47,060 nt of DNA from an uncultured Christensenellaceae bacterium (GCA_964463195.1 CAYXBO010000001.1:1-47060), one strand, 5' to 3'; counted from the stretch's first letter, positions 283 through 42,038 are shown. Made by a program: numbers and translations. The notes: generated by a model from the letters alone, not told the origin.

Positions 283-311
283 TTGACAACCGTATTTTAT
301 GGCGTTATAAT
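283..311 (+). promoter_or_regulatory. SigA-type promoter of first giant lipoprotein gene
   Basis: TTGACA (283-288) - 17 nt - TATAAT (306-311), a perfect consensus. GGAGG at 343-347 and ATG at 358 follow. Confidence 0.6.
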
Positions 312-3754: not shown

Positions 3755-3788
3755 AACAACCGCCCGCAAGGGCGGTTGTTTTTTTTTC
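3755..3788 (+). terminator. Rho-independent terminator of gene 1
   Basis: Perfect 11-bp stem AACAACCGCCC / GGGCGGTTGTT with GCAA loop, followed by a T7 run (3781-3787), 32 nt after the stop codon. Confidence 0.85.
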
Positions 3789-3809
3789 GCCCCTGAGGGG
3801 GAAGGGAGA

Positions 3810-3960
3810 GCGCCGAAGGCGCAATGAAATTGCAACTGCGTTGCAGTGATGCTCCTTGCGTCGCAGTGATATCGCCACTACGTGGCGGTGAAATTCACGC
3901 TGACGCGTGAGTGAAATCAAGCCTTGCGGCTTGGTGAAATCACTCGCCTTCGGCTCGCGG
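3810..3960 (-). repeat. Mini-hairpin array in inverse orientation (about 7 units; + strand reads hairpin + (A/G)GTGAAAT(C/T))
   Basis: Reads GCGCC-gaa-GGCGC AATGAAATT, GCAAC-tgc-GTTGC AGTGATGCT, TGCG-t-CGCA GTGATATC, GCCAC-tac-GTGGC GGTGAAATT, CACGC-tgac-GCGTG AGTGAAATC, AAGCC-ttgc-GGCTT GGTGAAATC, then an imperfect CTCGCC-ttc-GGCTCG. The reverse complement of 3871-3960 aligns ungapped to 136-225. Confidence 0.8.
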
Positions 3961-3988
3961 TTGTGGATTTTATTTAAATATCCTTAAC

Positions 3989-4078
3989 CGCACGCTTGCG
4001 TGCGATTTACCTCGCGCATAGCGCGAATTTACCCAAGCCGACAGGCTTGATTTACCCACGCGCAAGCGTGATTTACCT
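3989..4078 (+). repeat. Mini-hairpin array, ATTTACC type (4 units)
   Basis: Reads CGCACG-cttg-CGTGCG ATTTACCT, CGCGC-ata-GCGCG AATTTACCC, AAGCC-gaca-GGCTT GATTTACCC, CACGC-gcaa-GCGTG ATTTACCT. The conserved word starts at 4004, 4026, 4049 and 4070. It is separated from the inverse array by the AT-rich near-palindrome GGATTTTATTTAAATATCC (3965-3983). Confidence 0.8.
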
Positions 4079-4245
4079 AATCGCGAAGCCTTTGCTTTAC
4101 ACATTTTGCCGAAAGAAAGCTTATTGGCTTCGGGTATAACAAAAATCTTGGTTATTTATCGTGTTTAACTCCGTTTTGCGCTCGCGATGAGGGCGCGTAG
4201 CGCGCCCGCGCGTGTGTGAGATATGCGAAATTCCGGTTTTTGCCA

Positions 4246-4275
4246 TTGACACTATTATTATATTTATAATATAAT
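4246..4275 (+). promoter_or_regulatory. SigA-type promoter of the two-gene giant lipoprotein operon
   Basis: TTGACA (4246-4251) - 18 nt - TATAAT (4270-4275), about 47 nt upstream of ATG 4322. Confidence 0.55.
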
Positions 4276-4321
4276 TAGCGTGTATAAAAAGGGTGAAGTG
4301 CGCCCTTTAAGAGGCAAAGGA

Positions 4322-23728: not shown

Positions 23729-23757
23729 TTGACAACGGTAAAAACAAAGTATATAAT
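23729..23757 (+). promoter_or_regulatory. SigA-type promoter of the five-gene protease/cohesin/signal-peptidase operon
   Basis: TTGACA (23729-23734) - 17 nt - TATAAT (23752-23757), a perfect consensus located 19 nt after the gene 3 stop. GGAG at 23793-23796 precedes ATG 23805. Confidence 0.6.
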
Positions 23758-23804
23758 GTGTTTAGATACTTGTTGTATTTAGACATCAATACGGAGTCGG
23801 ATAT

Positions 23805-25025
23805 ATGAAAATTGTGATGAACGTAATTAAATCGGTATTTTGTTTGGCTTTGATTGCCGGCACGGTTTACCTTGCAGTAGGCGGGGTCATCATGGCAACC
23901 GGCGGGGGCGGAATAGAGGGCGACCCCGTTATCGAAATAGGAAATATAGGAAAGGAACCGGTAAGCCTCTTTTCGGACGTTCTCGACGACAAGACAGACG
24001 ACGTGCAGGAGGTCGTGGACAGCTACGATTTAACGGATATCGACGAGATAAAGAGCGCGATTATCGATTTATACGTTATAGGCTGCGAAACGTGGTATAA
24101 CGCTCCCGCAAGAGGCGCGAGATATCTCGGCGACGGCACCGGCGGCATTTACGGAGAGCTTGAGGGGAAACTGAAGGTTTTTAACGAAAGATATTACGTA
24201 AAGGGCGACGCGACGGACGATAATCCTTATCCTTATTACGGAATCGAGGAAAAACACAACTATGCATACGACGTCAATAAGCCTGAACCGATAGCGTCTA
24301 TTGCCGCTCAAACGTTGGGTTCCGCGCGCCGCTTCCTCTATATGCCCACAGGCGACTGGTCGTGGGAAGGGGAGAAGAATTCATCTACGCTCAATACAGA
24401 AGGTGCAAAAGCCAGTTTTACGAAATCGCCCGAATATAAATCGGCTGCCGAAGTGAAAAAAGCCAAGGAAGACGAGGAGCTTGCCTCTCATTTGGGAAGC
24501 GGCTCCGCATATTACTATTACGGCGACGAAATTCCCGACAAGAGCACCTACGTTCTTTACGAGCCCGAGGCAATACTCGACGCGTCGGACGAGAACGGTT
24601 TTGCCCCCAAGCTCACGGAGAGCAAAATAGACGGAAAGACCGTCTGGACCGCGGAGTTTGCCGTAAACTGCGACGTGAATAAAGCGTATACCAAATATGC
24701 GGCTCATGCAATCGGCAAAACTATTGACTCCGTAGTAAACGTAGTATACAAGAAACTGACTATTAAATTCGAGCTTTGGGAGACCGGCTATTTCCGCAGC
24801 TGGTCGGCGACCGAGCGTTGGGAAGGAGACAGTACTAACGCCCTTTATAAGGATAAAACCGGTTTTGCCGAGGTTGCGAGCACGGAAATTTACACCTACG
24901 ATATCGACGAGGTGACTAAAGTCATTTCCGAAAAAGCCGCTATCGTCTTAAAAGCCGACCCCGCAAAACCCGACGTAAGCTCCGTCGTAAAGGTTACCTA
25001 CAACGGGAAGGAAGTTTTCAAATAG
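23805..25025 (+). CDS. Membrane-anchored or secreted protein of unknown function (406 aa)
   Basis: Good SD spacing. N-terminal hydrophobic segment VIKSVFCLALIAGTVYLAVGGVIMATGGGG with no lipobox. The remainder is acidic and aromatic-rich with no motif I recognise. Confidence 0.8.
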   Translation: MKIVMNVIKSVFCLALIAGTVYLAVGGVIMATGGGGIEGDPVIEIGNIGKEPVSLFSDVLDDKTDDVQEVVDSYDLTDIDEIKSAIIDLYVIGCETWYNAPARGARYLGDGTGGIYGELEGKLKVFNERYYVKGDATDDNPYPYYGIEEKHNYAYDVNKPEPIASIAAQTLGSARRFLYMPTGDWSWEGEKNSSTLNTEGAKASFTKSPEYKSAAEVKKAKEDEELASHLGSGSAYYYYGDEIPDKSTYVLYEPEAILDASDENGFAPKLTESKIDGKTVWTAEFAVNCDVNKAYTKYAAHAIGKTIDSVVNVVYKKLTIKFELWETGYFRSWSATERWEGDSTNALYKDKTGFAEVASTEIYTYDIDEVTKVISEKAAIVLKADPAKPDVSSVVKVTYNGKEVFK

Positions 25026-25062
25026 GCTTCACGGAAGCTGTTTGAAGCTTTATCGGTAAATT

Positions 25063-28000
25063 ATGAATAGCATGGATAAAAAACCGCAGAACAGAATTAA
25101 AGCAATCTGTTTCACTGCGGTTTTTTTAACAGTCGCCGTCCTCCTGATTTTCTCTCCGGTAATTTTCGGAGGGACGGGCGATGAGACGATATTCCCCAAA
25201 GAGCTATATACCTTCAGCGAGGAGTATACCGAGCCGGACGGAACGGTTGCGGAGGTCTATGCCTCCGGCGACAGTGACTTCCGGTACATGCACGACGGCG
25301 ACGGATATATTCTCACGCCGGACGGCGAGGGATATCTCAGATACGCCGTAAACGACGGCGGGCGCGTCGAGGCTTCGGGACTCAGGTGGAACGCCTCGTC
25401 TCTTCAGAAATCCTTCGTAGACAAAATGACTTCGGAGGACTTGGTAAGGGAGAAAAACCCCGAGCTCGAAACCCTCCACGAGTACGACGGAGACCGTCCG
25501 GCGGTGCTTGCCGCAAGCCGCAAAAGTACCGTCTATAACGTGGTTATTTTTATTTCGTTTGCCGATAGCAGACTGACCGAGGCAGATATTCCTACCGAGA
25601 TTAGGGAAACCTTTTCAAATGATTGGGGAACCTATAACAGCCTTAAAAACTATTTTGCCGCTCAGACCGCGGGAGAAAAAGAGCTCGTCAATCTGTTTTC
25701 CTACGAGGACGGAAAGATATTCGTTTACCGGTCGCCGATGAGCAGAATTTATTATTCCTTTACCATAAGCGAGAGTACGAGAAGGAAGAGAGAGCGGGAG
25801 CTTCTCACCGCCGCCGCGGCGGCGTTTAACGCGGCGGAAAAAGAGGACGTTCCCGAAGACTGTCTCGACTCCGACGGCGACGGATACGCCGACGCGGTTT
25901 CCTTCGTAGTCCTCGACAGACCCGCGTCTACGCAAGGCTCTATTCTTTGGCCGCACAAATGGCACATGTCCTCTATCGGTGCAAGCTCGGAGGTGTGCGG
26001 CGTGCCTATAGGCGTTTATTCTCTCAATTTCACCGCCTCGCATTTCGTAACGTATGCGCACGAAACGGGTCACGTTCTCGGAGCGCCCGATTACTACGCA
26101 AGCACGAACAACTCCATGCCGCTCGTTGCGGAATGGGACGTTATGAGCATAACCCAGCGGTCTGGCAGTCCGGCAAACATGCTGGCTTACACCCGTAAAA
26201 AATACCTTGGACTGGAAGCCGGTGTTGTCGAGACCGTGCGCGCGGGGCAGACGGTGACTTTGAAGAACGCGGCTGACGTTCAGGGCGACGACCTTCTGGC
26301 AGTCAGAATACCGACGGACGCGGAAGGCGTTTACATATACGCCGAGTACCGTGCAAAAGCCGCGGCGGAAGAGTTTGACGGCGGGCAGAAGTCATACGGA
26401 CTGATTGTTTACCGCGTAAACGAAAACGTAGGCGGTTACGGCAACATAAACGCCAAAAGGATTACGGACTATTCCAATATAGAAGTGTTCGTCTACAGAA
26501 AGGGCGGCGCGGACAATCTGAGCGCGGTATATTCCGCAGCGCTCAACGGCAAGGATAAAACCGATTTCAATATTATAGGAAGCGGCACGGATACCCCTCT
26601 TACAGTAAACGCCCAAACCGTTCTCGACGCTTGCTTTTCCGACGTTGTGGAAAACGGTGACGGCACGGTTTCCTTTACCGTAAGCGGCGACGGAATAAAA
26701 TCCGACTACGACGGGGATTTTACGGTAAAAGGAGCAACCGCTTCAGACTGGACTTATTTCGCGAGAGCGGGCGAGCGGTTTACCGTAGAAATAGGACGCG
26801 CCCTGCCGACAGCTCAGGGCACGGTCAGAGCGTTTTACGATTACGATGCCGACGCGCTTACGGAAATTTCCTCTTCTGGGCTTTCTAAGACCTTCGAGGT
26901 GAAAGAGCACGCCGCAGAGACCGAGCCGATAACCGTCAGAATAAGGGACGGAATATCCTCATGTCAGATGAGGTTTGCGGTGATTACGGACGGAAGGAGC
27001 GCCCGCAGGGCAGAGATTAAAGAGGGAACGGATTCCGCCGTATTTTTGGGCGACGGTTGGGACGCAGTCACTGCCGTAGGGATATTCGGCGGCGAGGAAA
27101 AGGCGCTCGGAGAGGTCGAACCGCTTGCCTTCAACGCTTGGTCGGGAGCGGGGCTCAGGCGGGTGTATTTTAATATCGGAACGGAGCTTTACTGTTACGA
27201 CCTGACGGTTGCCGACCGCCCCGTTTATATGGAACCCGAGGTGGAGGAAATATCCCTTCTCGTCGGGGAAGCCTTACCCGAAACTCTTTCGTTAACGGTG
27301 CACTTCGCGTCGGGAGAGGAGAGACGGGTGGCGGTTTCGGATTGCGTGGTAAGCGGATTTGACAGCTCGGAAAAAGGGACGGTTACGGTGGTTCTTACCT
27401 ACCGCTCGGAGCTTGGCAACGCGGACAACGGTACGGTAAGCGCCGAGCTGAAGGTGTCTCTTGCAAGACCCGTCGGCATGCAAATAGTGGGCACGGAGAC
27501 GGAGTATGACGGGAAGAGTTATCCGACGGCGGAGCTCATTTCTTCGGACGGCACGGTGAATTTCGGAAGGACGGCGGTTTGCTATTATCTCGATTACGGA
27601 ACGGAAACCGTAGCGGTTTCGGCGGTCTACGGAGAGAGCTTTGAAAACGATTGGATTACCGTTGAGTTCGTAAACGGCGCGCCTTTGGAAAGCGGAATAT
27701 ACGGCGCCGCCGTTAAGGTTTACCGCAGGGCAAACGGAAGAGAAAGCATAGTGGCTGAGCTGGAAAACGTGGAGTTTAGGATACTGAAATCGATAAATAA
27801 GGCGACTATACTGATAGACGACAGCTTTAAGCAGGACGACGAAAGCTATGAGCTTTATCTAGAGGACAGGGATAACTGGGAGATATTCTGTTTAGTGGAA
27901 TACTTCGACGGAACCTCGGAAACGGTGCCGCTTACGGTCGGGGACGAGGATATTGTTTCGGGCGTACCGTATGAATTTGCGCCGGAATATCTGGGGCATC

Positions 28001-29535
28001 TTACGGAAGGAGTTTCTCTTGTTATCAGAAATACGGCGGTGGCTGTCGTAAGCTACGTTGCCGTAAGCTATTTCGGAGAACCGCTTGAGCTTGACCTCTG
28101 CGCAGTCATGGCTGACGGCACAGAAAGGGAGCTTTCGGACGGCGACTGGAGATATTCCGAGGGCTCGTGTTTTAACGAGTTCGGCGAAATCGGAGTGGCG
28201 CAGAATTTCAGGGTGGAGCTCACGGAGAGCAGCGGACTTATCAGGAAGGGCGGTTCCGTTTCCTCGCAGATATCCGTTACCCTTGTGGACGGCTTGAAGC
28301 GTATCGAGCTTCTCGCAGATTGTTACAAAAGAGATTACGAATACGGCGACGAGAATTTTGTGCTGAGATATCTTAAGACGGTATACTACAGCGGAAGGAC
28401 GGAGATAATATCTCCGACCGCAGAGGAAATAACCGTTTCGGGCTTCGACTCTACGGTTATAGTTGGTACGGAATACTCCCACACCCAGACCGTAACCGTC
28501 GGATATTCGGACAAAACTGCGGAGGCGGAAATAGAAATAATCAATCCCGTAATGTCGGTGAGGCTTGAAGGACTGCGCTTTGACGGCGAGGCTGACGCGT
28601 ATTTAAAGGATACGGCTTCCGACCGTCCATTTGAGCTGAGACTTGTCTACAAAAACGAAGCCGCCGAAACGGTGGAATGCGGAGTGGACACTCCGGAAAA
28701 CTACGATATCGGAGTTTTGGGACGGCATACGGCGACCTTTAACGTCCGGAAGGAAAACCGGATAATCTGCCGTACGACCGTGACTATTCTTAATTATACC
28801 TCAAACGTAAGACAAGCCTCGCTTGTCGATAACTCGACGGGAGAGGAACCCGAAGTCGTTTCGTTAAGGTACGGAGAAGCGTTGAACCTCGAGAGGTTTT
28901 CGGTACGGTTTTCCACGGGAAACGAAGCATTTTCATTAAGCCTTAACGATAAAGTTGCGAATACTTTAACGAAGAATTATTCCTTAAAGCGCGAAGAGGG
29001 CGGCGCGACCTCGGTAGTATTGGGAGTGCCCGTTTTACGCGACCAGAACGGAAAAGCCGCGTCATTTACCGTTCAGTTAAGCGTTGCGCCTAAAGTGAAC
29101 GAAAGAATACTTGCCGTCTCGTCGCAGGCTTCAGGCGTGGAAATAAAATACGGCAATAAAATCATAGTCCTGCAAAATCAGATGACGGTCGGGGAGTTGA
29201 CGGAGGCTTTGATATCCGATTATCTCCTTGTAAGCTATAAGGGCGGAACGGGCTCTCAGCTTGCGGGCGGATACGCCGGAGTCGGGAAAAACAGAGTTTT
29301 CCATACAGTCGAGCTTAAGAATGCCGAAGGAACGCTCGTCGACGTCTATAAGGTTTGCTTGCTCGGCGACTTTAGCGGGGACGGAAGGGTTTCTTCGGAG
29401 GATATTTCCGTCTTTGCCGAGAGGATACTGGAAAACAGCACGGAGATTTACGACTGCGAGGCGGCGGGCGGCAGTTTAAATCTGAAATCCTTCGTTAACA
29501 TGCTGAAGGCGCAAAAGGAGGGTGAGCAGATATGA
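25063..29535 (+). CDS. M6-type (immune inhibitor A-like) zinc metalloprotease with multiple Ig-like repeats and a C-terminal dockerin-like module (1490 aa)
   Basis: N-terminal signal/anchor KAICFTAVFLTVAVLLIFSPVIFGG. M6-domain hallmarks in order: VYNVVIFISFADS, SLKNYFAAQTAGEKEL, ILWPHKWHM, HETGHVLGAPDYY (HExxH at nt 26059-26073). Big_3-like repeats such as VSGFDSSEKGTVTVVLTY. Last 57 aa: GDFSGDGRVSSEDISVFAERIL plus a degenerate second loop. ATG 25072 is an alternative start. Confidence 0.8.
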   Translation: MNSMDKKPQNRIKAICFTAVFLTVAVLLIFSPVIFGGTGDETIFPKELYTFSEEYTEPDGTVAEVYASGDSDFRYMHDGDGYILTPDGEGYLRYAVNDGGRVEASGLRWNASSLQKSFVDKMTSEDLVREKNPELETLHEYDGDRPAVLAASRKSTVYNVVIFISFADSRLTEADIPTEIRETFSNDWGTYNSLKNYFAAQTAGEKELVNLFSYEDGKIFVYRSPMSRIYYSFTISESTRRKRERELLTAAAAAFNAAEKEDVPEDCLDSDGDGYADAVSFVVLDRPASTQGSILWPHKWHMSSIGASSEVCGVPIGVYSLNFTASHFVTYAHETGHVLGAPDYYASTNNSMPLVAEWDVMSITQRSGSPANMLAYTRKKYLGLEAGVVETVRAGQTVTLKNAADVQGDDLLAVRIPTDAEGVYIYAEYRAKAAAEEFDGGQKSYGLIVYRVNENVGGYGNINAKRITDYSNIEVFVYRKGGADNLSAVYSAALNGKDKTDFNIIGSGTDTPLTVNAQTVLDACFSDVVENGDGTVSFTVSGDGIKSDYDGDFTVKGATASDWTYFARAGERFTVEIGRALPTAQGTVRAFYDYDADALTEISSSGLSKTFEVKEHAAETEPITVRIRDGISSCQMRFAVITDGRSARRAEIKEGTDSAVFLGDGWDAVTAVGIFGGEEKALGEVEPLAFNAWSGAGLRRVYFNIGTELYCYDLTVADRPVYMEPEVEEISLLVGEALPETLSLTVHFASGEERRVAVSDCVVSGFDSSEKGTVTVVLTYRSELGNADNGTVSAELKVSLARPVGMQIVGTETEYDGKSYPTAELISSDGTVNFGRTAVCYYLDYGTETVAVSAVYGESFENDWITVEFVNGAPLESGIYGAAVKVYRRANGRESIVAELENVEFRILKSINKATILIDDSFKQDDESYELYLEDRDNWEIFCLVEYFDGTSETVPLTVGDEDIVSGVPYEFAPEYLGHLTEGVSLVIRNTAVAVVSYVAVSYFGEPLELDLCAVMADGTERELSDGDWRYSEGSCFNEFGEIGVAQNFRVELTESSGLIRKGGSVSSQISVTLVDGLKRIELLADCYKRDYEYGDENFVLRYLKTVYYSGRTEIISPTAEEITVSGFDSTVIVGTEYSHTQTVTVGYSDKTAEAEIEIINPVMSVRLEGLRFDGEADAYLKDTASDRPFELRLVYKNEAAETVECGVDTPENYDIGVLGRHTATFNVRKENRIICRTTVTILNYTSNVRQASLVDNSTGEEPEVVSLRYGEALNLERFSVRFSTGNEAFSLSLNDKVANTLTKNYSLKREEGGATSVVLGVPVLRDQNGKAASFTVQLSVAPKVNERILAVSSQASGVEIKYGNKIIVLQNQMTVGELTEALISDYLLVSYKGGTGSQLAGGYAGVGKNRVFHTVELKNAEGTLVDVYKVCLLGDFSGDGRVSSEDISVFAERILENSTEIYDCEAAGGSLNLKSFVNMLKAQKEGEQI

Positions 29536-30257
29536 AAAAGGCGATTTTGGCGATAATTCTCATACTGTGCGCAGTCGTCGCTCTTTCCGGCTGCACAACG
29601 GTTACCGAAATTGCTCTCGTAGAAAACGGCGTAAAAACCGAATATTCGGTGGACGAGGAGTTCCCGAGAGAGGCGCGGATTTCCGTAAAATACAAAAACG
29701 GCAAAACCGAAACCGTAAATATCCGAGCGTCCGACGTGGAAGGTTTCGACACCGGAATAAGCGGAACGCGCACGATGACGGTAAATTACGGCGGCAAAAG
29801 TCTGCCCGTTGAATATAATGTTAAGGGGCGGGTAAACACCCGCGCAAGGGTTAAGGCGGACGTAGACGTAGGCGACGGGGTCTTGAAAATCACTTTGAGC
29901 CTTAGCGGGCTTGACACTTCGGGCGCTCCGTTGTATGCTATTAAAATAAAGACGGCTTATTCTGCCGACAAGCTGGAATACGTCGGGGCGGTAGCCGCGG
30001 CGGACGGCTGGACGGTGGAGACGGTCGCGACTGCGGGTTCGGTTTCGGCACTGTTTTACAATGCGGACGCCGAAAATCCGATAAACGCCGACTGCAAGTT
30101 TGCGGAAATAACCTTCGGGACGTTATCGCAGGCGGACGGAACGGAATTCTATTTTTCCGGCGGCTCGGCAGGCTATGAGGAAATAGACGTATCCGACGGG
30201 GAAGGAATTTGGTATATGCCCGCGTTCGGTATCGGTTATTATGTGATAGAGGATTGA
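29532..30257 (+). CDS. Lipoprotein with Ig-like domain and cohesin-like domain (241 aa)
   Basis: ATGA overlap with the protease stop. MKKAILAIILILCAVVALSGC = lipobox LSG|C. Big_3-like segment GFDTGISGTRTMTVNYGGKSLPVEYNV. Cohesin-like pattern: VKADVDVGDGVLKITLSLSGLDTSGAPLYAIKIKTAYSADKLEYVGAVAAADGWTVETVATAGSVSALFYNADAENPINADCKFAEITFGTL. Confidence 0.7.
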   Translation: MKKAILAIILILCAVVALSGCTTVTEIALVENGVKTEYSVDEEFPREARISVKYKNGKTETVNIRASDVEGFDTGISGTRTMTVNYGGKSLPVEYNVKGRVNTRARVKADVDVGDGVLKITLSLSGLDTSGAPLYAIKIKTAYSADKLEYVGAVAAADGWTVETVATAGSVSALFYNADAENPINADCKFAEITFGTLSQADGTEFYFSGGSAGYEEIDVSDGEGIWYMPAFGIGYYVIED

Positions 30258-31903
30258 TGGCACTGAAAATTTTAACGCCCGACGAAATGTGGCGCGGTTT
30301 CAAAGAGGACGGTTCCTTTGCCGTTATAGATGAAAAAGTCAGCGTAAAAGCCGATTTTATCACCGAACACCTTCTGACCTTCGTTTCCGAAACGGTAGAC
30401 GACGGCGATATTACCGTGTCCGTCAGGTGCCTTTTGCCGGAAAATTATTCCGCGGTTGCGTTGGTTATCGAGGATTATAAAAAATCTGCCGACGAAGAGT
30501 TTATTGCGGAGCTTTTGAAAAGCGGGCTTGCGGTGGCAATTCCCGATTATTCCGACAGATATAAAAGCGGAACCTCGTTTACTCCTCTCACCGCGTACCT
30601 TGCGGAGGACACCCGCGGCGACAGACTCTACGAGGTCAACGAATCCGCAAAGGACAGCTGCCAGTTCATCTATGCCAAGATGGTGCGGAACACCGCAACC
30701 CTCATCAAGAACAGGTTCGGAGCGGACAAATTCCTGTTCGTTTCCGTAGGAGATTCTGCGGAGGTCGCCGTGACCTGCGCCGCAACGGACAAACGTGCCG
30801 TAGGTCTTCTGATGCTGAACGGGTTCGGATATTACGAGTTTAACGATTTGAACGTTTTCGGAGAAACCAAAGAAGCGGTTTACGACGAAAAGCTTTTGAG
30901 CTGGATGTCCGGAGTTTCCGCGGTCGCGTATACGCAGTACGTCCGCTGTCCCGTGCTTATCGCTGTCGGGACCAACAGCAACCGCTGCGATATGGACAGG
31001 CTGTCCGGCTTTACCTCGCGAATGAACGACGCGACGGTAAGCGTCGTTCTCTCGGCGGGCGCCAAAAAAACCGTCGATTACGACGGGTTTAAAACGGTAA
31101 AGAACTGGATTACGAGAATACTTTCCGGTTTAACTCTTCCGAGAATTCCGGATTCGAGGCTGTTCGTGAGCCGCGACGGCACGGTTTATACAGAGGTTGC
31201 GGTCGACACCTCGGCGATAATCGAAAAGGTGGAGGTTTATTATTCGACAGGGGAGTATAACCGCCGTTTCAGGGGCTGGCGTAAGGCGGCTTGTATGTCC
31301 ATTGCCCACGGAGAATATATGGCGACTATCCCGCTCTGCTCGGAAACCGACCCCGTTTTCGCTTACGCGCAGGTGACCTATATCGACGGAACCACGCTAT
31401 CTTCCTACGTTTCCCATATCGAAGCTAAGGAACAGAAGGTTAAGCCCACGGCGGTGCCGTCGAGGCATATTGTCGTGGAAAGCGGGCGTTCCTTCGACTG
31501 CTTCGCCATTGACAGAACGGCGGATATCGTCGTTTCGGAAGAAAAAATCGCCACTTCAAGCAGCTTAGGGCTCAAAGGGGTTGCGGCAAAAAAGGGCGGG
31601 CTTCTGACCTTCGTCATTGCCGAAGCCGCGAAAACAGCCGACAGCGAGATGCTTCAGATAGACGTTTTCAGCGAGAAGGGAGTAAGCGTCGGCATAGAGC
31701 TGGAAGCCTTGGAGGACGGAGCCGTCGAAACCTATACCGCCTATTGTCAGGTGCTCGGTTCCACTCTCTGTTTTTCTCCGGTAAGACTTACCGCCGTAGA
31801 CTTCAAAAACGCTGACCTTAAACCGCTCGAGGGCTGGCACAACGTCAGAAGTCTCAAGGTTTTAACGCCGACGGTTGCAGTAGGGAATATAATTTTCGTA
31901 TGA
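30257..31903 (+). CDS. Hypothetical cytoplasmic protein (~548 aa), possibly alpha/beta-hydrolase-like N-terminal half plus beta-sandwich-like C-terminal half
   Basis: ORF 30209-31903. Start placed at ATG 30257 (TGATG 1-nt overlap with the upstream stop), giving MALKILTPDEMWRGF. No signal peptide or TM. FLFVSVGDSAEVAV resembles a degenerate nucleophile elbow. The product call is weak. Confidence 0.6.
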   Translation: MALKILTPDEMWRGFKEDGSFAVIDEKVSVKADFITEHLLTFVSETVDDGDITVSVRCLLPENYSAVALVIEDYKKSADEEFIAELLKSGLAVAIPDYSDRYKSGTSFTPLTAYLAEDTRGDRLYEVNESAKDSCQFIYAKMVRNTATLIKNRFGADKFLFVSVGDSAEVAVTCAATDKRAVGLLMLNGFGYYEFNDLNVFGETKEAVYDEKLLSWMSGVSAVAYTQYVRCPVLIAVGTNSNRCDMDRLSGFTSRMNDATVSVVLSAGAKKTVDYDGFKTVKNWITRILSGLTLPRIPDSRLFVSRDGTVYTEVAVDTSAIIEKVEVYYSTGEYNRRFRGWRKAACMSIAHGEYMATIPLCSETDPVFAYAQVTYIDGTTLSSYVSHIEAKEQKVKPTAVPSRHIVVESGRSFDCFAIDRTADIVVSEEKIATSSSLGLKGVAAKKGGLLTFVIAEAAKTADSEMLQIDVFSEKGVSVGIELEALEDGAVETYTAYCQVLGSTLCFSPVRLTAVDFKNADLKPLEGWHNVRSLKVLTPTVAVGNIIFV

Positions 31904-32442
31904 AAGCAAACGTTAAGAACATCCTTATAACCTTACTCGTTTTCGTCATCGTAACCTCGGTGGCGGTTATAGTTACGGGAATTCTGTTCGCCATCGTTCC
32001 GATAAACGGAGAGAGTATGCACCCGACCGTAAGAGACGGGGATTTCGTTTTCATACTGAAGGTTGGGTCGTTCAAAAGGGGCGACGTCGTGGTTATAGAG
32101 AACCCTAACGCGGATGGGAACGCCGAAAGACTCCTGAAAAGGATTATCGCCGTCGAAGGCGATACGGTTGAGACGCGCTTCGTTGACGGTGAGGAAAGGT
32201 ATTTCGTAAACGGCGAAATGCTGGACGAGCCCTACGTGAACAACGGGCAGGAGGCGAAGGGAAGACAGCCTATGATTACCGTTCCCGAGGGGCGCTTTTA
32301 CTACCTCGGCGACAACAGAAGGGTGTCCGCCGACAGCTATTCGTCCTCGGTAAGCGGCTCGAAGCTCGGCTATATGGACCATATCGTCGGAAAAGTGCTT
32401 TTTAAGGGCAATTTCAAGGAGTTCAGTTTTGCCGGAGTTTAA
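31900..32442 (+). CDS. lepB: Type I signal peptidase (S26 family)
   Basis: ATGA overlap with the upstream gene. N-terminal TM. Catalytic Ser box INGESMHPTV, Lys box LLKRIIAVEGDTV and box E YYLGDNRRVSADS, all in canonical order. Confidence 0.85.
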   Translation: MKANVKNILITLLVFVIVTSVAVIVTGILFAIVPINGESMHPTVRDGDFVFILKVGSFKRGDVVVIENPNADGNAERLLKRIIAVEGDTVETRFVDGEERYFVNGEMLDEPYVNNGQEAKGRQPMITVPEGRFYYLGDNRRVSADSYSSSVSGSKLGYMDHIVGKVLFKGNFKEFSFAGV

Positions 32443-32455
32443 TTCGGCTTTTTTC
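32431..32455 (+). terminator. Weak rho-independent terminator after lepB
   Basis: GCCGGA-gtttaa-TTCGGC (6-bp stem with one G.U pair; the loop contains the stop codon), followed by T6. Confidence 0.45.
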
Positions 32456-32503: not shown

Positions 32504-34753
32504 ATGGCTAAATTTAAAAGGCTGGTGCCTTATTTTTTTTACGCCGCGGCGTTGTTTGCTTTTTCGGCGGCGGAATCGACCCTTCCCGTGCGCCCGTTTG
32601 CGCTCGGCTTTTTTCTCGCTCTCGTCTATTCGAGGCAGAACGTCATAATTCTCGCGCCGGTATACGCCGTCGCCGCGATAGTCTTCGATTTGTCCGTCGC
32701 CTCCGCGGTTTACGCAACGGTTCCCGTAGCCGTTGTCGTCGGAGCGTCGTTTTTCCATTATAAGCTCAACCGTCCCATGAATATCGCCGCGCTTAACGCT
32801 TACGTTCTTCTGTCCGCGGCGCCCATGTTCGCGTTTATAAGTCCCACCGTGGAATCCGTCCTTCTGACGTCCGCGACGGTCGTCGGCAACCTGTTCACCG
32901 CAAACGTTGCCGTCATTATGCTTTACGCTGTATCGGTAAGGGGGTTAAGATACAGACTGTCGCCGCAGGAGGTCATGTCGGTCATGCTTTTTGCGGCGGC
33001 TCTTTCCCTCAGCCTCGTAAGAATAAACGTTTTCGGATTTCCGCTTCTGCCGCTCGCGGCAGTTCCCGTAATTGCGCTGTCCCTTTTCGGCGGCGGAATT
33101 TTCCCGCTCGTTTCGGGAGCGGTAATCGGCGCGGGAGCCGCTGTCGGAGCGCTCGATATGGCTTTCGTCGGAGTGTATTTTCTAATGGGGTGCGGCGCTG
33201 CGGCAGGCTTTAAGCATCCCGTTTTCGCCGCTCTCTTTACCTTCGGCGCCTTTTCCGTCGGGCTGTTCCTTCAGGGGCTTATAGAGCAGTATCTCTATCT
33301 CGTTTCGGCTGGAGTGGGCACGGTCGTATATATCGCGTCCTATAAATTCACCTCTCCGTCGCTTGCAGCTGTTGCCGCCGTTCAGAGAAGGGAACAGGGC
33401 GGTCGGTTCCTCATCAACAGAACGAGGCTCGACGTGGCGCAAAAGCTTTCCAATCTGTCGACGGTATTTTCCGATATGGAAAACACTCTTAAGGAGGACG
33501 CGGAGCCGGCAGCTTCTGCGGGAAGCCTGAGAGCCGTGGACGGAGTAAAGCGCGACACCTGCGCAAAATGCGCGCGAAGAACGGAGTGCGAGGCAGCTTT
33601 AGGGGGTGACACTTCCGTGGTCGTAGCTGATTTGGTCGACGCCGCGGAGAGAAGGGGCAAGGCGACTATTCTCGATACCACGCCGTTTCTGTCCTCCCGT
33701 TGCGGCAACATAAATATCATGATTGACAGCGTCAACCGCTGGGTGGAAAGAGTAAGAAACCGTGACGACGCAGAGAGAAAACAGCGCGGAATGGAGGACA
33801 TGCTGTCCCGTCAGATGGGAAGCGTTTCGGGTATTTTAGAAAACCTCAGGCAGGACGTAGAACAGCCGGTGTCTTACGATATGCGCCTTGAAAGAAAGCT
33901 CATTGACGAATTGCAATACAGAGACGTCAGAGCCGTCGAAGCAATAGTATATAAGGAGAAGGACGGGCTCTGCCTGACCCTCATCGTTGCCGCGGGCGAC
34001 GAGAACAAACCTCAGCTTTTGGATACCGTTAATAAAGTATTGGGAGCCCGAATGTGCGAAAACCGACGGGTTCAGACCATTAAGGGTAACGTAACTCTCA
34101 ACTTTATAAAGGAACCCGCGTACTCCGTGGTATACGGCTCCTACGGAGTTCCGAAGGACGGAAAAGTGTCGGGAGACGTATCGGACGCGGTTTCTCTCGG
34201 GAGGGGGAAAGTGATGATAATTCTATCCGACGGAATGGGCAGCGGCAAAAAAGCCAACAGGAATTCCCTGCTTGCCGTCAGAATGATTGAAGGCTTCTAT
34301 AAGGCGGGCTTCAGCCACGAGGCGGTGACGGACGCCGCTTCCGGACTTCTGACCCTCAGGGGCGGAGAGGAGTTCAACGCCGTCGACCTCGCGGTCGTCG
34401 ACCTTGAGACGGCGGAGACCGACTTTATTAAGCTCGGCGGGCGGGAAGGCTATATTTTAACCGGCGGCACCGTCGATGAAGTGCCCTGCGGTTCCCTTCC
34501 GATAGGTATCGTCGAGGACGTAACGCCAAGGATTGTCAGGCGCACGCTTTCCGACGGCGACGTGTTCGTTATGATGTCCGACGGAGTGGCTGATATTATG
34601 GATAACGAGAAGGTTACCGCAATTTTAACCTCGGAAAATTCCTTAAATCCCAACCTTATCGCCAAGGATTTGGTGTCTAACGCCTTGGCTCTCGGCGGTC
34701 ACGAGGACGATATGAGCTGCGTCGTCGGACGCATTTTCCGCCGCGCCGGTTGA
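32504..34753 (+). CDS. spoIIE: Stage II sporulation protein E (PP2C-type phosphatase with polytopic N-terminal membrane domain)
   Basis: About 330 aa of repeated hydrophobic helices, then a PP2C domain with VMIILSDGMGSGKKANRNS, FNAVDLAVVDL, GSLPIGIV and VFVMMSDGVADI, typical of SpoIIE. Confidence 0.85.
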   Translation: MAKFKRLVPYFFYAAALFAFSAAESTLPVRPFALGFFLALVYSRQNVIILAPVYAVAAIVFDLSVASAVYATVPVAVVVGASFFHYKLNRPMNIAALNAYVLLSAAPMFAFISPTVESVLLTSATVVGNLFTANVAVIMLYAVSVRGLRYRLSPQEVMSVMLFAAALSLSLVRINVFGFPLLPLAAVPVIALSLFGGGIFPLVSGAVIGAGAAVGALDMAFVGVYFLMGCGAAAGFKHPVFAALFTFGAFSVGLFLQGLIEQYLYLVSAGVGTVVYIASYKFTSPSLAAVAAVQRREQGGRFLINRTRLDVAQKLSNLSTVFSDMENTLKEDAEPAASAGSLRAVDGVKRDTCAKCARRTECEAALGGDTSVVVADLVDAAERRGKATILDTTPFLSSRCGNINIMIDSVNRWVERVRNRDDAERKQRGMEDMLSRQMGSVSGILENLRQDVEQPVSYDMRLERKLIDELQYRDVRAVEAIVYKEKDGLCLTLIVAAGDENKPQLLDTVNKVLGARMCENRRVQTIKGNVTLNFIKEPAYSVVYGSYGVPKDGKVSGDVSDAVSLGRGKVMIILSDGMGSGKKANRNSLLAVRMIEGFYKAGFSHEAVTDAASGLLTLRGGEEFNAVDLAVVDLETAETDFIKLGGREGYILTGGTVDEVPCGSLPIGIVEDVTPRIVRRTLSDGDVFVMMSDGVADIMDNEKVTAILTSENSLNPNLIAKDLVSNALALGGHEDDMSCVVGRIFRRAG

Positions 34754-34809: not shown

Positions 34810-34877
34810 TACTTATTATAATGTCAATAATATGCTCGTGCGTTATGTGCGCGCGAGGTTCCATAAAGGGAGTGTCT

Positions 34878-37139
34878 ATGAAAAAGACTATCGTCGCAAC
34901 GCTTTTGATTATCGTTATTTTAGCCGCAAGCCTGACGGGCTGTACGTTTATCAGAGCCAACGAACAGCGTCAGCTCGAACAGACTCTTATCGTCGTCGAA
35001 AAGGACGGGCTCAAGCTGTCCGTTACTCAGATGGAGCTCATCGATAATATCAACAGCTCGGTCTACAATTACGTTCAGTACGGAATGACCGTCGAACAAG
35101 CCATAAATTACGTTATCGAAGGGCGCGTCCAATCCAAAATTCTGGTTATCGAGGCAATGCAGTATCTGCCGACCGTTGAGAGAAGACGGGCGGTTCAGAG
35201 AAACGCAACCGTAACTAAACCCGAGGACGTTTTAACTTACGCCGAATATTGCGAGGCGATAATTGCAGTAAACAATCAGATTCAGGATTCCATAGACAAC
35301 TACGTCAAGGAATACGAGGATAACCTTAAGAAAACCGAGGTTACCAACGCTTCCAAAAACAACGTGGAGAAAATAGAGATTGAGTCGGGACTTAACGAAG
35401 AATATATCGTCGGAGAGTCCTTAGCCCTCGACGACCTTAAGCTTCGTATCGTCTATAAGGACGGAACCGAAGCGGTAATTCCGGTAATTTCCTCTATGGT
35501 AGACACGGAGTTCTCTTCCCAGAGCGCCGGAGATTTCGAGCTAATCCTCGCTCTGGACGTTAACGTGGAAAAGGACGGCGTCGTCGAAACCGAAAAGATT
35601 AAGACCGAAAACGGCAAGTATACCGTTAAGGCTGCGCCTACCGTCAAGACGACTACGCTCGACGACGAAAATTACAATCCGCACAGCCATTCCAATGCCT
35701 ACATCGACAGCATCCGCTATATGACCGAGGCGGAATTGAGAACGTGGGTCACCGGCAACGAGGCTAAAAAGTACGATTACAACAACGGAAAGGGTGTCGT
35801 TCCTACACCCATCGACCTCGAGGCGATGCCCACAGCAGACATGTCCGCCGCCGAAAAGGACGCCTGGAGACGCTTAAAAACCAACCTTACCACCAACTAC
35901 AGAAGTCCCGAATACTATTACCGCTCCAACTTCGAGTCGCAGGTTCTGTCCGCGCTTCAGCACGAGCTCTATCAGAACGTGGACGAGGAAATTGCGTCCG
36001 ACGGAGATTTCAACGCAAGCGTTCTGGAGCAGTTCTCCGCGCTTTCCGCCCAGGACAGCGTCAAATACGAGCGCATGACCGTAAAAGACAGAAAGTCGGC
36101 GTTTATTTCGGCGATTTCCTCAAGTCTCGAATCTCTCTACTTCTGCCCCTCGGTGGAAAACCTCAACGAATACTATTACGTGCAGCACGTTTTGTTTAAA
36201 TTCGACGACGAAACCTTCAATTTTATCAAAGCCAACAACCTCGACCCCATTAAGGATAAGAAGGAATTCGAGAAGCTCGTTTCCCGTCAGAAGGTAAGAG
36301 AGGCTAACCCGCTTTACGACGCAAGCTACGAATGCGGCGCGGAGCACTTCGACGAAGACGGTAACTATATCGCCAATCCCGAAGGTTGCAAGTTTAATGT
36401 CTCTGAATATCTCAATCTCGGAAAGAGCAATTATCAGTATATGATAGACCATCCGGACGGACAATACTACTGCCCGTCGGTCGCCTATCTCAGGAACGAA
36501 ACTCCTGTTACGGATGTTCTCGCCGAGTTCGCCGACGCCCTCGCCACGGCAAAGAGCCTTAACGATACGCAGAAATTAAAGGAAACCTTTGAATGGTTCA
36601 TTTACCGCTTCTCCGACGTCAACAGCGGCAGCTTCAACAACGACCTCGGTTACCTTATAACCCCCGATAAATCCGATTCCTCGCTTGTCGACGGCTTCTA
36701 CGCCTTCGGCAAACTGCTCGGTGCGCAGGCGGAATATAAGGCGGAGAACGAAGGTATCTACACCGTTTCGGATGAGGTTATCAATGGAAACGGACAATAC
36801 GGCGCATACGTCATGAAATACCAAAGCAAAGGCGGCAACGCATTGCAGTACGTTGTGGGGACCGACAATTCCTCTTACGCAGGTATCCACGTTTTAATGC
36901 TTCAGAAAGTGCCGTTTACCACATCCGCGGACTGGAACTACGAAAGCTTCGTAAATTCCGCCAACGACAAGACGATTTCCAAAGCCTTGGCAGACGGAAT
37001 AATCTCTACGCGCCGCTCCACTGCATACAGCAACTTCACTTCCGAAAAACTCAAGGACTACGACGAGAGAGAGGACGTAACCGTTACCAAAGAGGAAAAG
37101 AAAATCAAATCGCTCATCTCTCAGTATACCGGTTCGTAA
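34878..37139 (+). CDS. Lipoprotein, divergent PrsA/parvulin-like foldase candidate (~753 aa)
   Basis: ORF 34821-37139. Start moved to ATG 34878 (AAAGGGAG upstream), giving MKKTIVATLLIIVILAASLTGC = lipobox LTG|C. Parvulin-like landmarks: YYVQHVLFKF, SDVNSGSFNNDLGYLI, LVDGFYAFGKLL and GIHVLMLQKV, interrupted by a long Cys-containing insert. Confidence 0.5.
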   Translation: MKKTIVATLLIIVILAASLTGCTFIRANEQRQLEQTLIVVEKDGLKLSVTQMELIDNINSSVYNYVQYGMTVEQAINYVIEGRVQSKILVIEAMQYLPTVERRRAVQRNATVTKPEDVLTYAEYCEAIIAVNNQIQDSIDNYVKEYEDNLKKTEVTNASKNNVEKIEIESGLNEEYIVGESLALDDLKLRIVYKDGTEAVIPVISSMVDTEFSSQSAGDFELILALDVNVEKDGVVETEKIKTENGKYTVKAAPTVKTTTLDDENYNPHSHSNAYIDSIRYMTEAELRTWVTGNEAKKYDYNNGKGVVPTPIDLEAMPTADMSAAEKDAWRRLKTNLTTNYRSPEYYYRSNFESQVLSALQHELYQNVDEEIASDGDFNASVLEQFSALSAQDSVKYERMTVKDRKSAFISAISSSLESLYFCPSVENLNEYYYVQHVLFKFDDETFNFIKANNLDPIKDKKEFEKLVSRQKVREANPLYDASYECGAEHFDEDGNYIANPEGCKFNVSEYLNLGKSNYQYMIDHPDGQYYCPSVAYLRNETPVTDVLAEFADALATAKSLNDTQKLKETFEWFIYRFSDVNSGSFNNDLGYLITPDKSDSSLVDGFYAFGKLLGAQAEYKAENEGIYTVSDEVINGNGQYGAYVMKYQSKGGNALQYVVGTDNSSYAGIHVLMLQKVPFTTSADWNYESFVNSANDKTISKALADGIISTRRSTAYSNFTSEKLKDYDEREDVTVTKEEKKIKSLISQYTGS

Positions 37140-40077: not shown

Positions 40078-41004
40078 ATGGTCGGGCCTTGCGAAAAGAA
40101 AACCTGCCTGAGCCCCTTCGACGCGGCTGTTCTCATAGCGTTATCGCTCGTTTTCGGGACGGTTTTATCGACGCTGGCGTTTATTCCGATGCCCGAAAAC
40201 ATCCGCGCGTTCCTGTCGTATGCGGCGGTGCAGGCGGCAATCCTCGCCGTACTCTTTATATATATAAAGATAAGGAAGCAGCCGGTTTCCGTCCTCGGAG
40301 TTTCGGAAAAACCGAAGCCAGCAGCACTTGCTCTCACTCCGGTCATGGCAATAGGGGCAATCGCGCTGTTTATGATTGTGAACTATATCGCGGTGTACGT
40401 TTACGCCGCTTGCGGCATAGAAACCGCGGTTGCCGCTCCCGCGTGGGACAGGTGGGAGAACGTAGTTCTCGGTATCCTCACCATGTGCGTTTTACCCGCC
40501 TTCGGAGAGGAGCTGCTGTTTCGGGGCGCGGTGCTCGGGGCTGAGAGACGGTTCGGAGACAAAAAGGCGATAATTACCGTAGCGGTGGTTTTCGCGCTTT
40601 ACCACTTCAACCTCGCGCAGACCTGGTATCAGCTGTTCTACGGCACGTTCCTCGCGTTTATCGTCGTAAAAACCGACAACGTGTGGTACGCGGTGTCCCT
40701 TCACTTCTTCAATAACCTGTTCGTTCAGCTCTTGTCGCTCATACCGTCTATAGGCGCGCTGGACGTTTTCAGCTGGGCGAACATGGGAATACTTTTGTCG
40801 ATTTCTTTGGGCGGCGCGGGCATTCTGTCAACGTCGGGGCTGCTCTTCCTGAGAACGGTAGGGGATAAAAAGCTTTCCGGAAAAACGGCGGAAGCCGACG
40901 CGGTAACTCTTAAAGCCGACAGAACGGCAAATTGCGCTTTAATCGGCGGACTGGCAATTATATGGATAATAACAGTAATAATCTCACTTACGGGGGCGTT
41001 ATGA
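40078..41004 (+). CDS. CPBP family intramembrane glutamic endopeptidase (CAAX protease-like), copy 1
   Basis: Polytopic protein. Motifs FGEELLFRG, FALYHF and HFFNN in order. GAGGT SD 8 nt upstream. Starts 1 nt after the MBL stop. Confidence 0.85.
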   Translation: MVGPCEKKTCLSPFDAAVLIALSLVFGTVLSTLAFIPMPENIRAFLSYAAVQAAILAVLFIYIKIRKQPVSVLGVSEKPKPAALALTPVMAIGAIALFMIVNYIAVYVYAACGIETAVAAPAWDRWENVVLGILTMCVLPAFGEELLFRGAVLGAERRFGDKKAIITVAVVFALYHFNLAQTWYQLFYGTFLAFIVVKTDNVWYAVSLHFFNNLFVQLLSLIPSIGALDVFSWANMGILLSISLGGAGILSTSGLLFLRTVGDKKLSGKTAEADAVTLKADRTANCALIGGLAIIWIITVIISLTGAL

Positions 41005-42038
41005 CGAAAACCGCAAAAACAGGACTTATATATTTTATATCGACGGTGCTGTTGCTATTGAACCGCACTATAAACAGTCTTTATCCGCTGTCGGATAACT
41101 GGAGCGGCTGGCTCTATTCCGTAACCTCTCAGATACTCATTATGTTCGTGCTACCTACGGTGCTTTACATGATAATGATAAAGAGAGACGGCAGCCTGTG
41201 GCAGGACGTGAATATCCTTCCTAAAAAGAAGCTCAATCCCGCGGTTTGGGGATTGGTTATTGCGGCCGTTCCGTTGTTCATTTTCCTGACCCGCTGCATC
41301 TCCGTTCTTTGGAACGGACTGCTGCTCCCGATTGTGGGATTTACCTCGGTGTCGGGAGTCGGAACCATATATTCCGAGCCGTCGGTTCTCGTGATGGAGC
41401 TTTTAACCGGCGCGTTGCTTCCCGGCTTCTGCGAAGAGTTTTTCAACCGCGGGCTCCTCAATATGAGCATTTGGGATACTAAAGACGATAATGTGAGGGC
41501 AATAATCATCGGCGTGGTGTTCGGACTTTTCCATATGAACGTACAGCAGTTCGGATACGCGATATTCGGAGGGTTCGTGCTCGGATTCCTTTTCGTCAAG
41601 ACCAAAAACCTTTGGGCGGGCGTAATTTTACACGTCGCCAACAACGCCTGGAATACGATTTGCGACTACGCCGACCAGAAGGAGCTCGCGCTCGGAGCGT
41701 TATACAACAGGGTCTGGGATTTCATGACCTCGAGCGTGCTCGTTCTTCTGGTGCTGACCGTCGTTGCGGCGATGGCGCTTGCGTCAGTCGTTGCGTTAAT
41801 CGGAAGACTGGCGGATAAAAGCCCCGAGCGGAGTAAGGCAACCGGTGCGGATACTGTCGAAGAGCCGAGGGAGAGAAGCTTTGCGGAAACCGTATTCGGG
41901 TTTGTCAAGCAGGAAAATACGGCGGCTCCTGAAAGTACGGCCAAAGCTAAGTTTTACGAATACGGCTTTCTCGTCGCGGCGTTGGTCGTCATGGCGGTCG
42001 CGACGCTGGCAACCTTTATCTGGGGTCTCGTGAGATGA
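41001..42038 (+). CDS. CPBP family intramembrane glutamic endopeptidase, copy 2
   Basis: ORF 40932-42038. Start placed at ATG 41001 (ATGA overlap with copy 1). Motifs FCEEFFNRG, FGLFHM and HVANNAW. Confidence 0.8.
   Translation: MTKTAKTGLIYFISTVLLLLNRTINSLYPLSDNWSGWLYSVTSQILIMFVLPTVLYMIMIKRDGSLWQDVNILPKKKLNPAVWGLVIAAVPLFIFLTRCISVLWNGLLLPIVGFTSVSGVGTIYSEPSVLVMELLTGALLPGFCEEFFNRGLLNMSIWDTKDDNVRAIIIGVVFGLFHMNVQQFGYAIFGGFVLGFLFVKTKNLWAGVILHVANNAWNTICDYADQKELALGALYNRVWDFMTSSVLVLLVLTVVAAMALASVVALIGRLADKSPERSKATGADTVEEPRERSFAETVFGFVKQENTAAPESTAKAKFYEYGFLVAALVVMAVATLATFIWGLVR

Follow-up and report, generated by a model that had tools for sequence, protein, structure and literature searches.

A stretch of 47,060 nucleotides (nt) from an uncultured Christensenellaceae bacterium (GCA_964463195.1, CAYXBO010000001.1:1-47060), here called the window, carries five open reading frames (ORF1 to ORF5) in a row on one strand, directly downstream of three genes for giant lipoproteins (G1 to G3). 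ORF1 encodes a protein with an N-terminal anchor or signal, ORF2 a large M6 metalloprotease ending in a dockerin, ORF3 a small lipoprotein with a cohesin, ORF4 a protein without signal peptide and ORF5 a type I signal peptidase of family S26. The positions of these genes and of the elements around them are given in Table 1. Comparison with related loci suggests that the operon is probably a composite of an anchored protease module and a separate ORF4-S26 module, neither of which is specific to the giants.

Table 1. Genes, domains and regulatory elements of the five-gene operon and of the upstream giant lipoprotein genes (positions counted from the first nucleotide of the window)
Feature	Position (nt)	Strand	Remarks
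G1 promoter	283-311		Perfect TTGACA-17-TATAAT
G1 terminator	3759-3790		Very strong; -22.6 kcal/mol, z -4.98
G2 promoter	4247-4280		Near-perfect, AT-rich stretch
Operon promoter	23729-23757	+	Sigma-70-type; TTGACA 23729-23734, 17-nt spacer, TATAAT 23752-23757; 12/12 consensus match
Leader	23758-23804	+	Short; GGAG ribosome-binding site 8 nt upstream of ATG
ORF1	23805-25025	+	406 amino acids (aa); N-terminal hydrophobic anchor or signal
ORF2	25063-29535	+	1490 aa; 37-nt gap after ORF1; N-terminal signal/anchor, M6 zinc metalloprotease, beta-rich stalk of ~1000 aa, C-terminal dockerin
M6 catalytic domain (ORF2)	25543-26370	+	aa 161-436; HETGHVLGAPD at aa 333-343, nt 26059-26091
Dockerin (ORF2)	29365-29526	+	aa 1435-1488; family model E 3e-6
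ORF3	29532-30257	+	241 aa lipoprotein; ATGA, 4-nt overlap with ORF2; lipobox LSGC (aa 18-21, nt 29583-29594), Big_3 (aa 35-90), cohesin (about aa 100-237, nt 29829-30242)
ORF4	30257-31903	+	548 aa, no signal peptide; TGATG, 1-nt overlap with ORF3; alpha/beta-hydrolase fold and two beta-sandwich domains
ORF5	31900-32442	+	180 aa type I signal peptidase (S26); ATGA, 4-nt overlap with ORF4; one N-terminal transmembrane helix
Terminator-like hairpin	32431-32455	+	Weak, overlaps ORF5 stop codon; stem 32431-32448, then T6

The promoter in front of ORF1 is the only complete consensus match within 22.5-35.5 kb. In the two closest relatives, L001 and L002 (ORF4 77% and 67% identical, respectively), the two hexamers are unchanged, as are the 14 nt that follow the -10 element (GTGTTTAGATACTT), whereas the spacer and the flanks have diverged. 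This phylogenetic footprint indicates that the promoter is probably functional. The original prediction, made from the sequence of the window, had pointed out this perfect promoter, five same-strand genes and the four junctions between them, and all were found as described, the family alignment favouring the ATG at 30257 over an upstream TTG as the start of ORF4. A promoter-driven, translationally coupled five-gene unit is thereby supported. The hairpin behind ORF5, which had been predicted to be the only terminator-like structure, is present but weak: its 6-bp stem includes one G-U pair, its folding z-score is -1.45, where that of the strong G1 terminator is -4.98, and L001 has not kept the stem. 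Nor is it the only one, as three further terminator-like matches on the + strand fall within the operon, and such matches occur at chance level in the region (18 found, 17.7 expected). The sequence GTGTTTAGATACTT (23758-23771), identical in three contigs with diverged flanks, may be an operator or a start-site element. A second copy of it, which would have hinted at co-regulation with the giants, was sought throughout the window and not found.

ORF2 matches the NCBIfam model TIGR03296 with E 2.9e-29 and 102.8 bits, under the trusted cut-off of 110.8, and Pfam PF05547 (Peptidase_M6) is not reported for it at E 0.01 or better. The latter model does exceed its cut-off of 22 in the ORF2 homologues of loci L020 (33.1 bits) and L033 (40.6 bits), and phmmer comparison of ORF2 with its relatives gave E-values as low as 3e-66. 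Furthermore, the zinc motif HExxHxxGxxD is kept in 11 out of 11 ORF2-like proteins for which the N-terminus is available. The dockerin of ORF2 consists of a canonical calcium-binding first repeat (DFSGDGRVSSED) and a degenerate second repeat (DCEAAGGSLNLKSF) in which the Asp/Asn ligands are lost. Pfam Dockerin_1 aligns only with the first half (profile positions 2-28, E 0.05), whereas a hidden Markov model (HMM) built solely from the dockerins of distant relatives matches ORF2 over positions 2-56 (E 3e-6). The ORF2-like proteins of more than 20 loci end in canonical two-repeat dockerins, and distant ones exceed the Pfam cut-offs for both Dockerin_1 and Peptidase_M6.

The lipobox of ORF3 is kept in most ORF3-like proteins and is followed by a Big_3 domain (Pfam E 2.8e-6). 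Pfam Cohesin (PF00963) matches two out of six ORF3 orthologues (71-73% identical; best E 2e-8), and the top Foldseek matches of an AlphaFold2 model of ORF3 are cohesins, first 2jh2 (E 3e-7, TM-score 0.71-0.74 normalised to the target) and after it many cellulosomal cohesins. PDB sequence searches with ORF2 and ORF3 returned nothing useful. Taken together, the profile matches, the zinc motif and lipobox, and the modelled fold of ORF3 agree with the predicted M6 protease-dockerin and cohesin lipoprotein. Exactly one dockerin and one cohesin, those of ORF2 and ORF3, are found in the whole window. With one module of each kind in the window and a conserved pair of overlapping genes as indirect support, we infer that the dockerin of ORF2 binds the cohesin of ORF3, and that the protease is thereby held at the cell surface by a private 1:1 pair. 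The C terminus of ORF3 (aa 209-241, nt 30158-30254, ending in YMPAFGIGYYVIED) has last 30 residues that are near-invariant among orthologues and yet is modelled with a predicted local distance difference test (pLDDT) score below 50.

The identification of ORF5 as a signal peptidase I was likewise confirmed. It scores 109.6 bits against NCBIfam sigpep_I_bact (TIGR02227, cut-off 47) and E 1e-28 against Pfam Peptidase_S26 (PF10502), and it carries Ser39 (GESMHP), Lys80 (KRIIAVEGD) and a box E (GDNRRVSADS). By these motifs ORF5 is a standard bacterial P-type Ser-Lys enzyme with its catalytic residues intact.

ORF4, signal-less as predicted, has no match in Pfam or NCBIfam. An exhaustive HMMER search gathered a family of 406 cluster representatives (clusters defined at 50% identity), nearly all full-length with about 550 aa, for which there is no Pfam model. 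With the family alignment, AlphaFold2 modelled ORF4 at a pLDDT of 94.8; the full-length conservation and this model point to clear purifying selection. Its N-terminal 300 aa most resemble CE7 acetyl xylan esterases (Foldseek E 1e-9 to 1e-10, TM-score 0.5-0.6). In agreement with this fold, weak Pfam matches to DLH were seen in 21 and to AXE1 in 8 out of 72 family members, with some weak matches to S15, and a PDB search with the family profile gave weak alpha/beta-hydrolase matches, whereas ORF4 alone gave nothing useful. Of the 72 members, 52 have Gly, 15 Ala and 4 Ser in the column of the nucleophile, and the last strand is not followed by any conserved His. By this pattern the family is not one of serine hydrolases, and ORF4 appears to be catalytically dead. 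An active esterase was considered for ORF4 and rejected, as the Ser-His-Asp triad is missing family-wide. The window protein itself has a serine (Ser167 in GDSAE, nt 30755-30757) at the nucleophile elbow, where 67 of the 72 members have Gly or Ala, and no matching His.

For comparison of gene order we used 50 loci (L001 to L050), of which 31 came from genomes, 11 from metagenomes and 8 from an exact-protein look-up. They derive mainly from Christensenellales, Stercoripulliclostridium or unclassified Clostridia metagenome-assembled genomes (MAGs). The genome loci were found with a 12-sequence subset of the 72-sequence ORF4 alignment, and all were annotated by phmmer with the window proteins as queries. 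An S26 gene lies directly 3' of ORF4 in 48 of the 49 loci with downstream DNA. In the single exception (L027, 2404-2682), ORF4 is followed by a 360-nt gap and, where the 2.7-kb contig ends, an RHS/YD-repeat-like ORF, maybe an assembly join. The ORF4-S26 order persists at 20-25% identity in other neighbourhoods, beside gidB/trmE/smpB (L037-L039), divergent from tilS (L035) and after a gerA operon (L036). Furthermore, the pair occurs without the M6 and cohesin genes in L022, L023, L026, L035, L036, L037 and L039.

An M6-dockerin gene followed by a cohesin lipoprotein gene also recurs across the loci, usually with overlapping stop and start codons (-4, -8 or -11), and this pair is located 5' of ORF4-S26 in about 30 of them. 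Between the two pairs, most relatives carry a gene for a GH20 hexosaminidase (Pfam E 3e-108), one for a P-type cation ATPase (Pfam E 1e-50) or both, and the common string reads M6-dockerin, cohesin lipoprotein, GH20, ATPase, ORF4, S26, spoIIE and tilS, with junctions of mostly 30 nt or less. The GH20 protein is a cytoplasmic beta-hexosaminidase and the ATPase is of the Ca/Mg type; their genes lie at 5873-9998 in L004 and are present, with tiny gaps, in most of L004-L050. Both genes are missing from the operon of the window and were not found elsewhere in it. The compact arrangement with ORF3 directly 5' of ORF4 is shared by L003, L033 and L048. A spoIIE gene (window 32504-34753) lies directly 3' of S26 in most loci (L004-L044). 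In L033 it is still adjacent, though inverted and 5' of the M6 gene, and the Christensenellaceae loci L022, L023 and L026 have no spoIIE and carry two tandem S26 genes instead.

Homologues of G1-G3 and ORF1 are found in L001 and L002 only. In about 45 more distant loci that hold the other operon genes, phmmer detected no homologue of G1-G3 or ORF1. Whether the operon genes travel with the giants had been raised as a check in the original prediction; the M6, cohesin, ORF4 and S26 genes do travel together in many genomes, the giants and ORF1 do not go with them. ORF1 has no sequence match in Pfam, NCBIfam or the PDB, the last also searched with an ORF1 profile, and just 9 homologues, 64-100% identical, among 5.8 billion proteins. 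The ORFs found 5' of ORF2-like genes in distant loci have no similarity to it. Judged by this distribution, ORF1 is a lineage-specific addition.

These observations are best explained by a composite operon, and we consider it probable that an anchored protease module and a separate ORF4-S26 module, neither of them giant-specific, have come to share one promoter-driven unit in the window lineage. In the first module, ORF2 would be an exported zinc metalloprotease of the InhA type (M6) with a long beta-rich stalk, and ORF3, lipid-anchored and made from the overlapping next cistron, would tether it via its single cohesin. ORF4 and ORF5 would form the older module, an active signal peptidase I with a cytoplasmic pseudo-esterase as its partner. 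Since ORF4-S26 exists both with and without the protease genes and the giants, a role of ORF5 dedicated to either of them is unlikely. The pair probably consists of a signal peptidase of general use, or at any rate one not reserved for the giants, and its accessory protein. Within the operon, the non-lipoprotein signals of ORF1 and ORF2 would be plausible substrates of ORF5, and after signal cleavage ORF2 would rely on its dockerin for retention. In the window lineage the GH20 and ATPase genes are absent, and this would account for the compact overlapping arrangement.

Several observations weigh against this interpretation. ORF2-ORF3 and ORF4-ORF5 keep one order and one orientation in about 30 of the 37 loci that could be assessed, and the two modules may therefore be functionally linked and not merely juxtaposed. 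The degenerate second dockerin repeat could mean that binding is altered or lost in the window lineage, and ORF3 of the window itself stays under the Pfam cohesin threshold, with a model of moderate quality (pLDDT 70). ORF5 has only about 7 residues on the cytoplasmic side, and it is not obvious how it would contact a cytoplasmic ORF4 directly. Finally, the counts overstate independence, as the loci cluster phylogenetically, many stem from related MAGs and some are redundant (L041 resembles L005, L043 L014, L044 L015, and L049 and L050 both L031).

A more specific idea, which we offer tentatively, is that the ORF4 family is an undescribed obligate partner of signal peptidase I in Christensenellales-like Clostridia, which, as a catalytically dead protein of esterase fold, might regulate or position the enzyme or supply it with substrates, and that the pair usually works together with a tethered M6 protease.

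It is also conceivable, although rather unlikely in our view, that the M6-dockerin, the cohesin lipoprotein, the GH20 and ATPase proteins where present, ORF4, S26 and SpoIIE belong to one envelope or spore-surface pathway, in which S26 and ORF4 could serve the protease module and calcium transport could support the dockerin or sporulation. This speculation is in line with the order, orientation and short junctions, which are kept in more than 25 loci where ORF4 is only 26-33% identical to that of the window, with the adjacency of spoIIE even when inverted in L033, and with the direct succession of ORF3 and ORF4 in L003, L033, L048 and the window lineage. InhA-type proteases are, moreover, present in Bacillus exosporia. 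However, ORF4-S26 occurs without M6, cohesin and spoIIE genes in L022, L023, L026, L035, L037 and L039, and the GH20 and ATPase genes are each dispensable. The spoIIE-tilS-hpt region belongs to the core chromosome, and much of the conservation could thus reflect vertical synteny within one order.

The original prediction had gone further and proposed that the whole region from 358 to 32442 is one system, in which maturation, trimming or shedding of the giants would fall to the surface-tethered protease together with a dedicated signal peptidase. In favour of this, G3 lies directly 5' of ORF1-ORF5 in the window, L001 and L002, a surface protease beside giant surface proteins would be a plausible arrangement of enzyme and substrate, and no terminator was found between the G3 stop (23710) and the promoter at 23729, so that read-through from G2-G3, which are spaced by 12 nt, is possible. 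The three contigs are, however, close relatives (ORF4 67-93% identical), and the M6, cohesin, ORF4 and S26 genes are kept without the giants and ORF1 in the distant loci. Where sequence 5' of the ORF2-like gene is available in these loci, the gene is preceded by small unrelated genes (L025, L029, L034), by a divergent spoIIE (L033) or by an unrelated ORF running off the end of the locus (L020, L024, L032). G1 and G2 have promoters of their own and G1 a strong terminator, and the giants therefore belong to two or more transcription units. It is signal peptidase II (LspA), not an S26 enzyme, that processes lipoprotein precursors, and since lipobox-like sites are present in G1 (MVGC), G2 (LVAC) and G3 (LFAC), the giants are expected to be substrates of LspA, in conflict with their proposed cleavage by a dedicated signal peptidase I. 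S26 co-varies with ORF4 and not with the giants. Neither a dockerin nor a cohesin was found in G1-G3, which also led us to reject the giants as dockerin-bearing cargo of ORF3. A common maturation system is hence highly unlikely, and the giants are, judging from where they occur, neighbours acquired in the window lineage rather than conserved partners of the operon. Among themselves, G2 and G3 show weak similarity in the N-terminal module (22% identity, E 1e-15), and scanning metagenomes with the last 485 aa of G3 turned up no relative.

Least probable of all is that the adjacency has no meaning, with ORF5 a housekeeping enzyme, ORF4 a decayed esterase and the overlaps a matter of genome compaction: the location in a conserved core region beside spoIIE and tilS, the absence of catalytic residues from ORF4, and the pairing of an almost wholly extracytoplasmic ORF5 with a protein lacking a signal peptide would fit, but survival of ORF4-S26 in at least three unrelated neighbourhoods at such low identity is unexpected by chance, and the purifying selection on full-length ORF4 proteins with a well-defined fold argues against decay.

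The components of the composite operon resemble known systems to different degrees. Non-cellulosomal cohesin-dockerin pairs have reportedly been described before, and the pair of the window is similar to these in having a type-I-like dockerin at the C terminus of a secreted enzyme and the cohesin on a cell-anchored protein. Structurally, ORF3 is closest to the cohesin-like modules of Clostridium perfringens (PDB 2jh2 and 2vo8) and to cellulosomal cohesins. Unlike the known pairs, that of the window would be private and 1:1, and its cistrons overlap. A small lipoprotein with a single cohesin would serve as the anchor, instead of a multi-cohesin scaffoldin anchored by S-layer homology domains or sortase, and the cargo would be an M6 protease, with a degenerate second dockerin repeat, and no carbohydrate-active enzyme. 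With a single cohesin, a single dockerin and no dockerin-bearing carbohydrate-active enzyme, the window does not encode a cellulosome. Dockerin-linked peptidases as such are on record from Ruminococcus flavefaciens FD-1 (PMC2930009).

ORF2 shares with InhA of Bacillus thuringiensis and B. cereus (M6) the HExxHxxGxxD motif, the match to the M6 profile and the predicted character of a secreted multidomain enzyme. It differs in its length (1490 aa, and about 2000 aa in relatives), in the Ig-like or RCC1 repeats, in the dockerin and in scoring under the NCBIfam trusted cut-off. An analogy of ORF5 with SipW, which accompanies TasA/TapA in Bacillus subtilis, and with the SipA homologues (SipA/LepA) of streptococcal pilus islands had been drawn in the original prediction. 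In all these cases an S26-family gene is part of a surface-protein operon. SipW is an endoplasmic reticulum/archaeal-type enzyme, and the pilus SipA proteins lack catalytic residues, whereas ORF5 is of the bacterial P-type with Ser39 and Lys80. Furthermore, its conserved partner is ORF4 and not a secreted substrate, and S26 adjoins ORF4 with or without surface-protein genes, which in some loci are not even nearby. The analogy thus fails on its defining features. ORF4, finally, has the fold of CE7 acetyl xylan esterases and dienelactone-hydrolase-type alpha/beta hydrolases in its N-terminal 300 aa, and is set apart from them by the lack of a conserved triad, two extra C-terminal beta-sandwich domains and a gene that is obligately located beside a signal peptidase.

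M6/InhA proteases and S26 peptidases are well known, and non-cellulosomal cohesin-dockerin pairs and peptidases with dockerins are documented. In the literature we found no work that connects M6 or immune inhibitor A to dockerins or cohesins, and no description of an M6-dockerin with a single-cohesin lipoprotein or of the ORF4 family beside signal peptidase I. The protease module would provide a clean example of cohesin-dockerin use outside fibre degradation, conserved across a poorly studied and mostly uncultured gut order. To our knowledge, there are next to no known accessory proteins for bacterial signal peptidase I, and the comparison flags an unannotated family whose sole consistent feature is a gene directly 5' of that of the enzyme, a link that is experimentally approachable. 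A dedicated maturation system for giant lipoproteins, the more exciting idea, was removed as unsupported.

Some further features were noted elsewhere in the window. Two inverted copies of the Gut-1 RNA motif (Rfam RF01706) flank G1, at 3864-3945 on the + strand and at 151-232 on the - strand. One scores 56.1 bits (gathering score 50) and the other 46.2 bits, just under it, with E 4e-7. We know of no function assigned to Gut-1. Both copies are located within arrays of short GC-rich hairpins (about 120-245 and 3800-4090) with GUGAAAU/GATTTCAC-like spacers. The window, which is an entire NCBI contig, starts with a tandem repeat (1-60) of a AGTGAAAAGTGAAG-type unit of about 14 nt. Downstream of spoIIE, a gene at 34821-37139 encodes a 772-aa protein with a hydrophobic N-terminus, a weak ABC-2-like match and Big_3, which may be a surface protein; the relatives showed no homologue in this place. 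Two consecutive genes for CAAX/Rce1-like membrane proteases, whose listed ORFs overlap by about 70 nt, are located at 40078-42038, between a gene for a protein of the metallo-beta-lactamase fold and tadA-pth-mfd.

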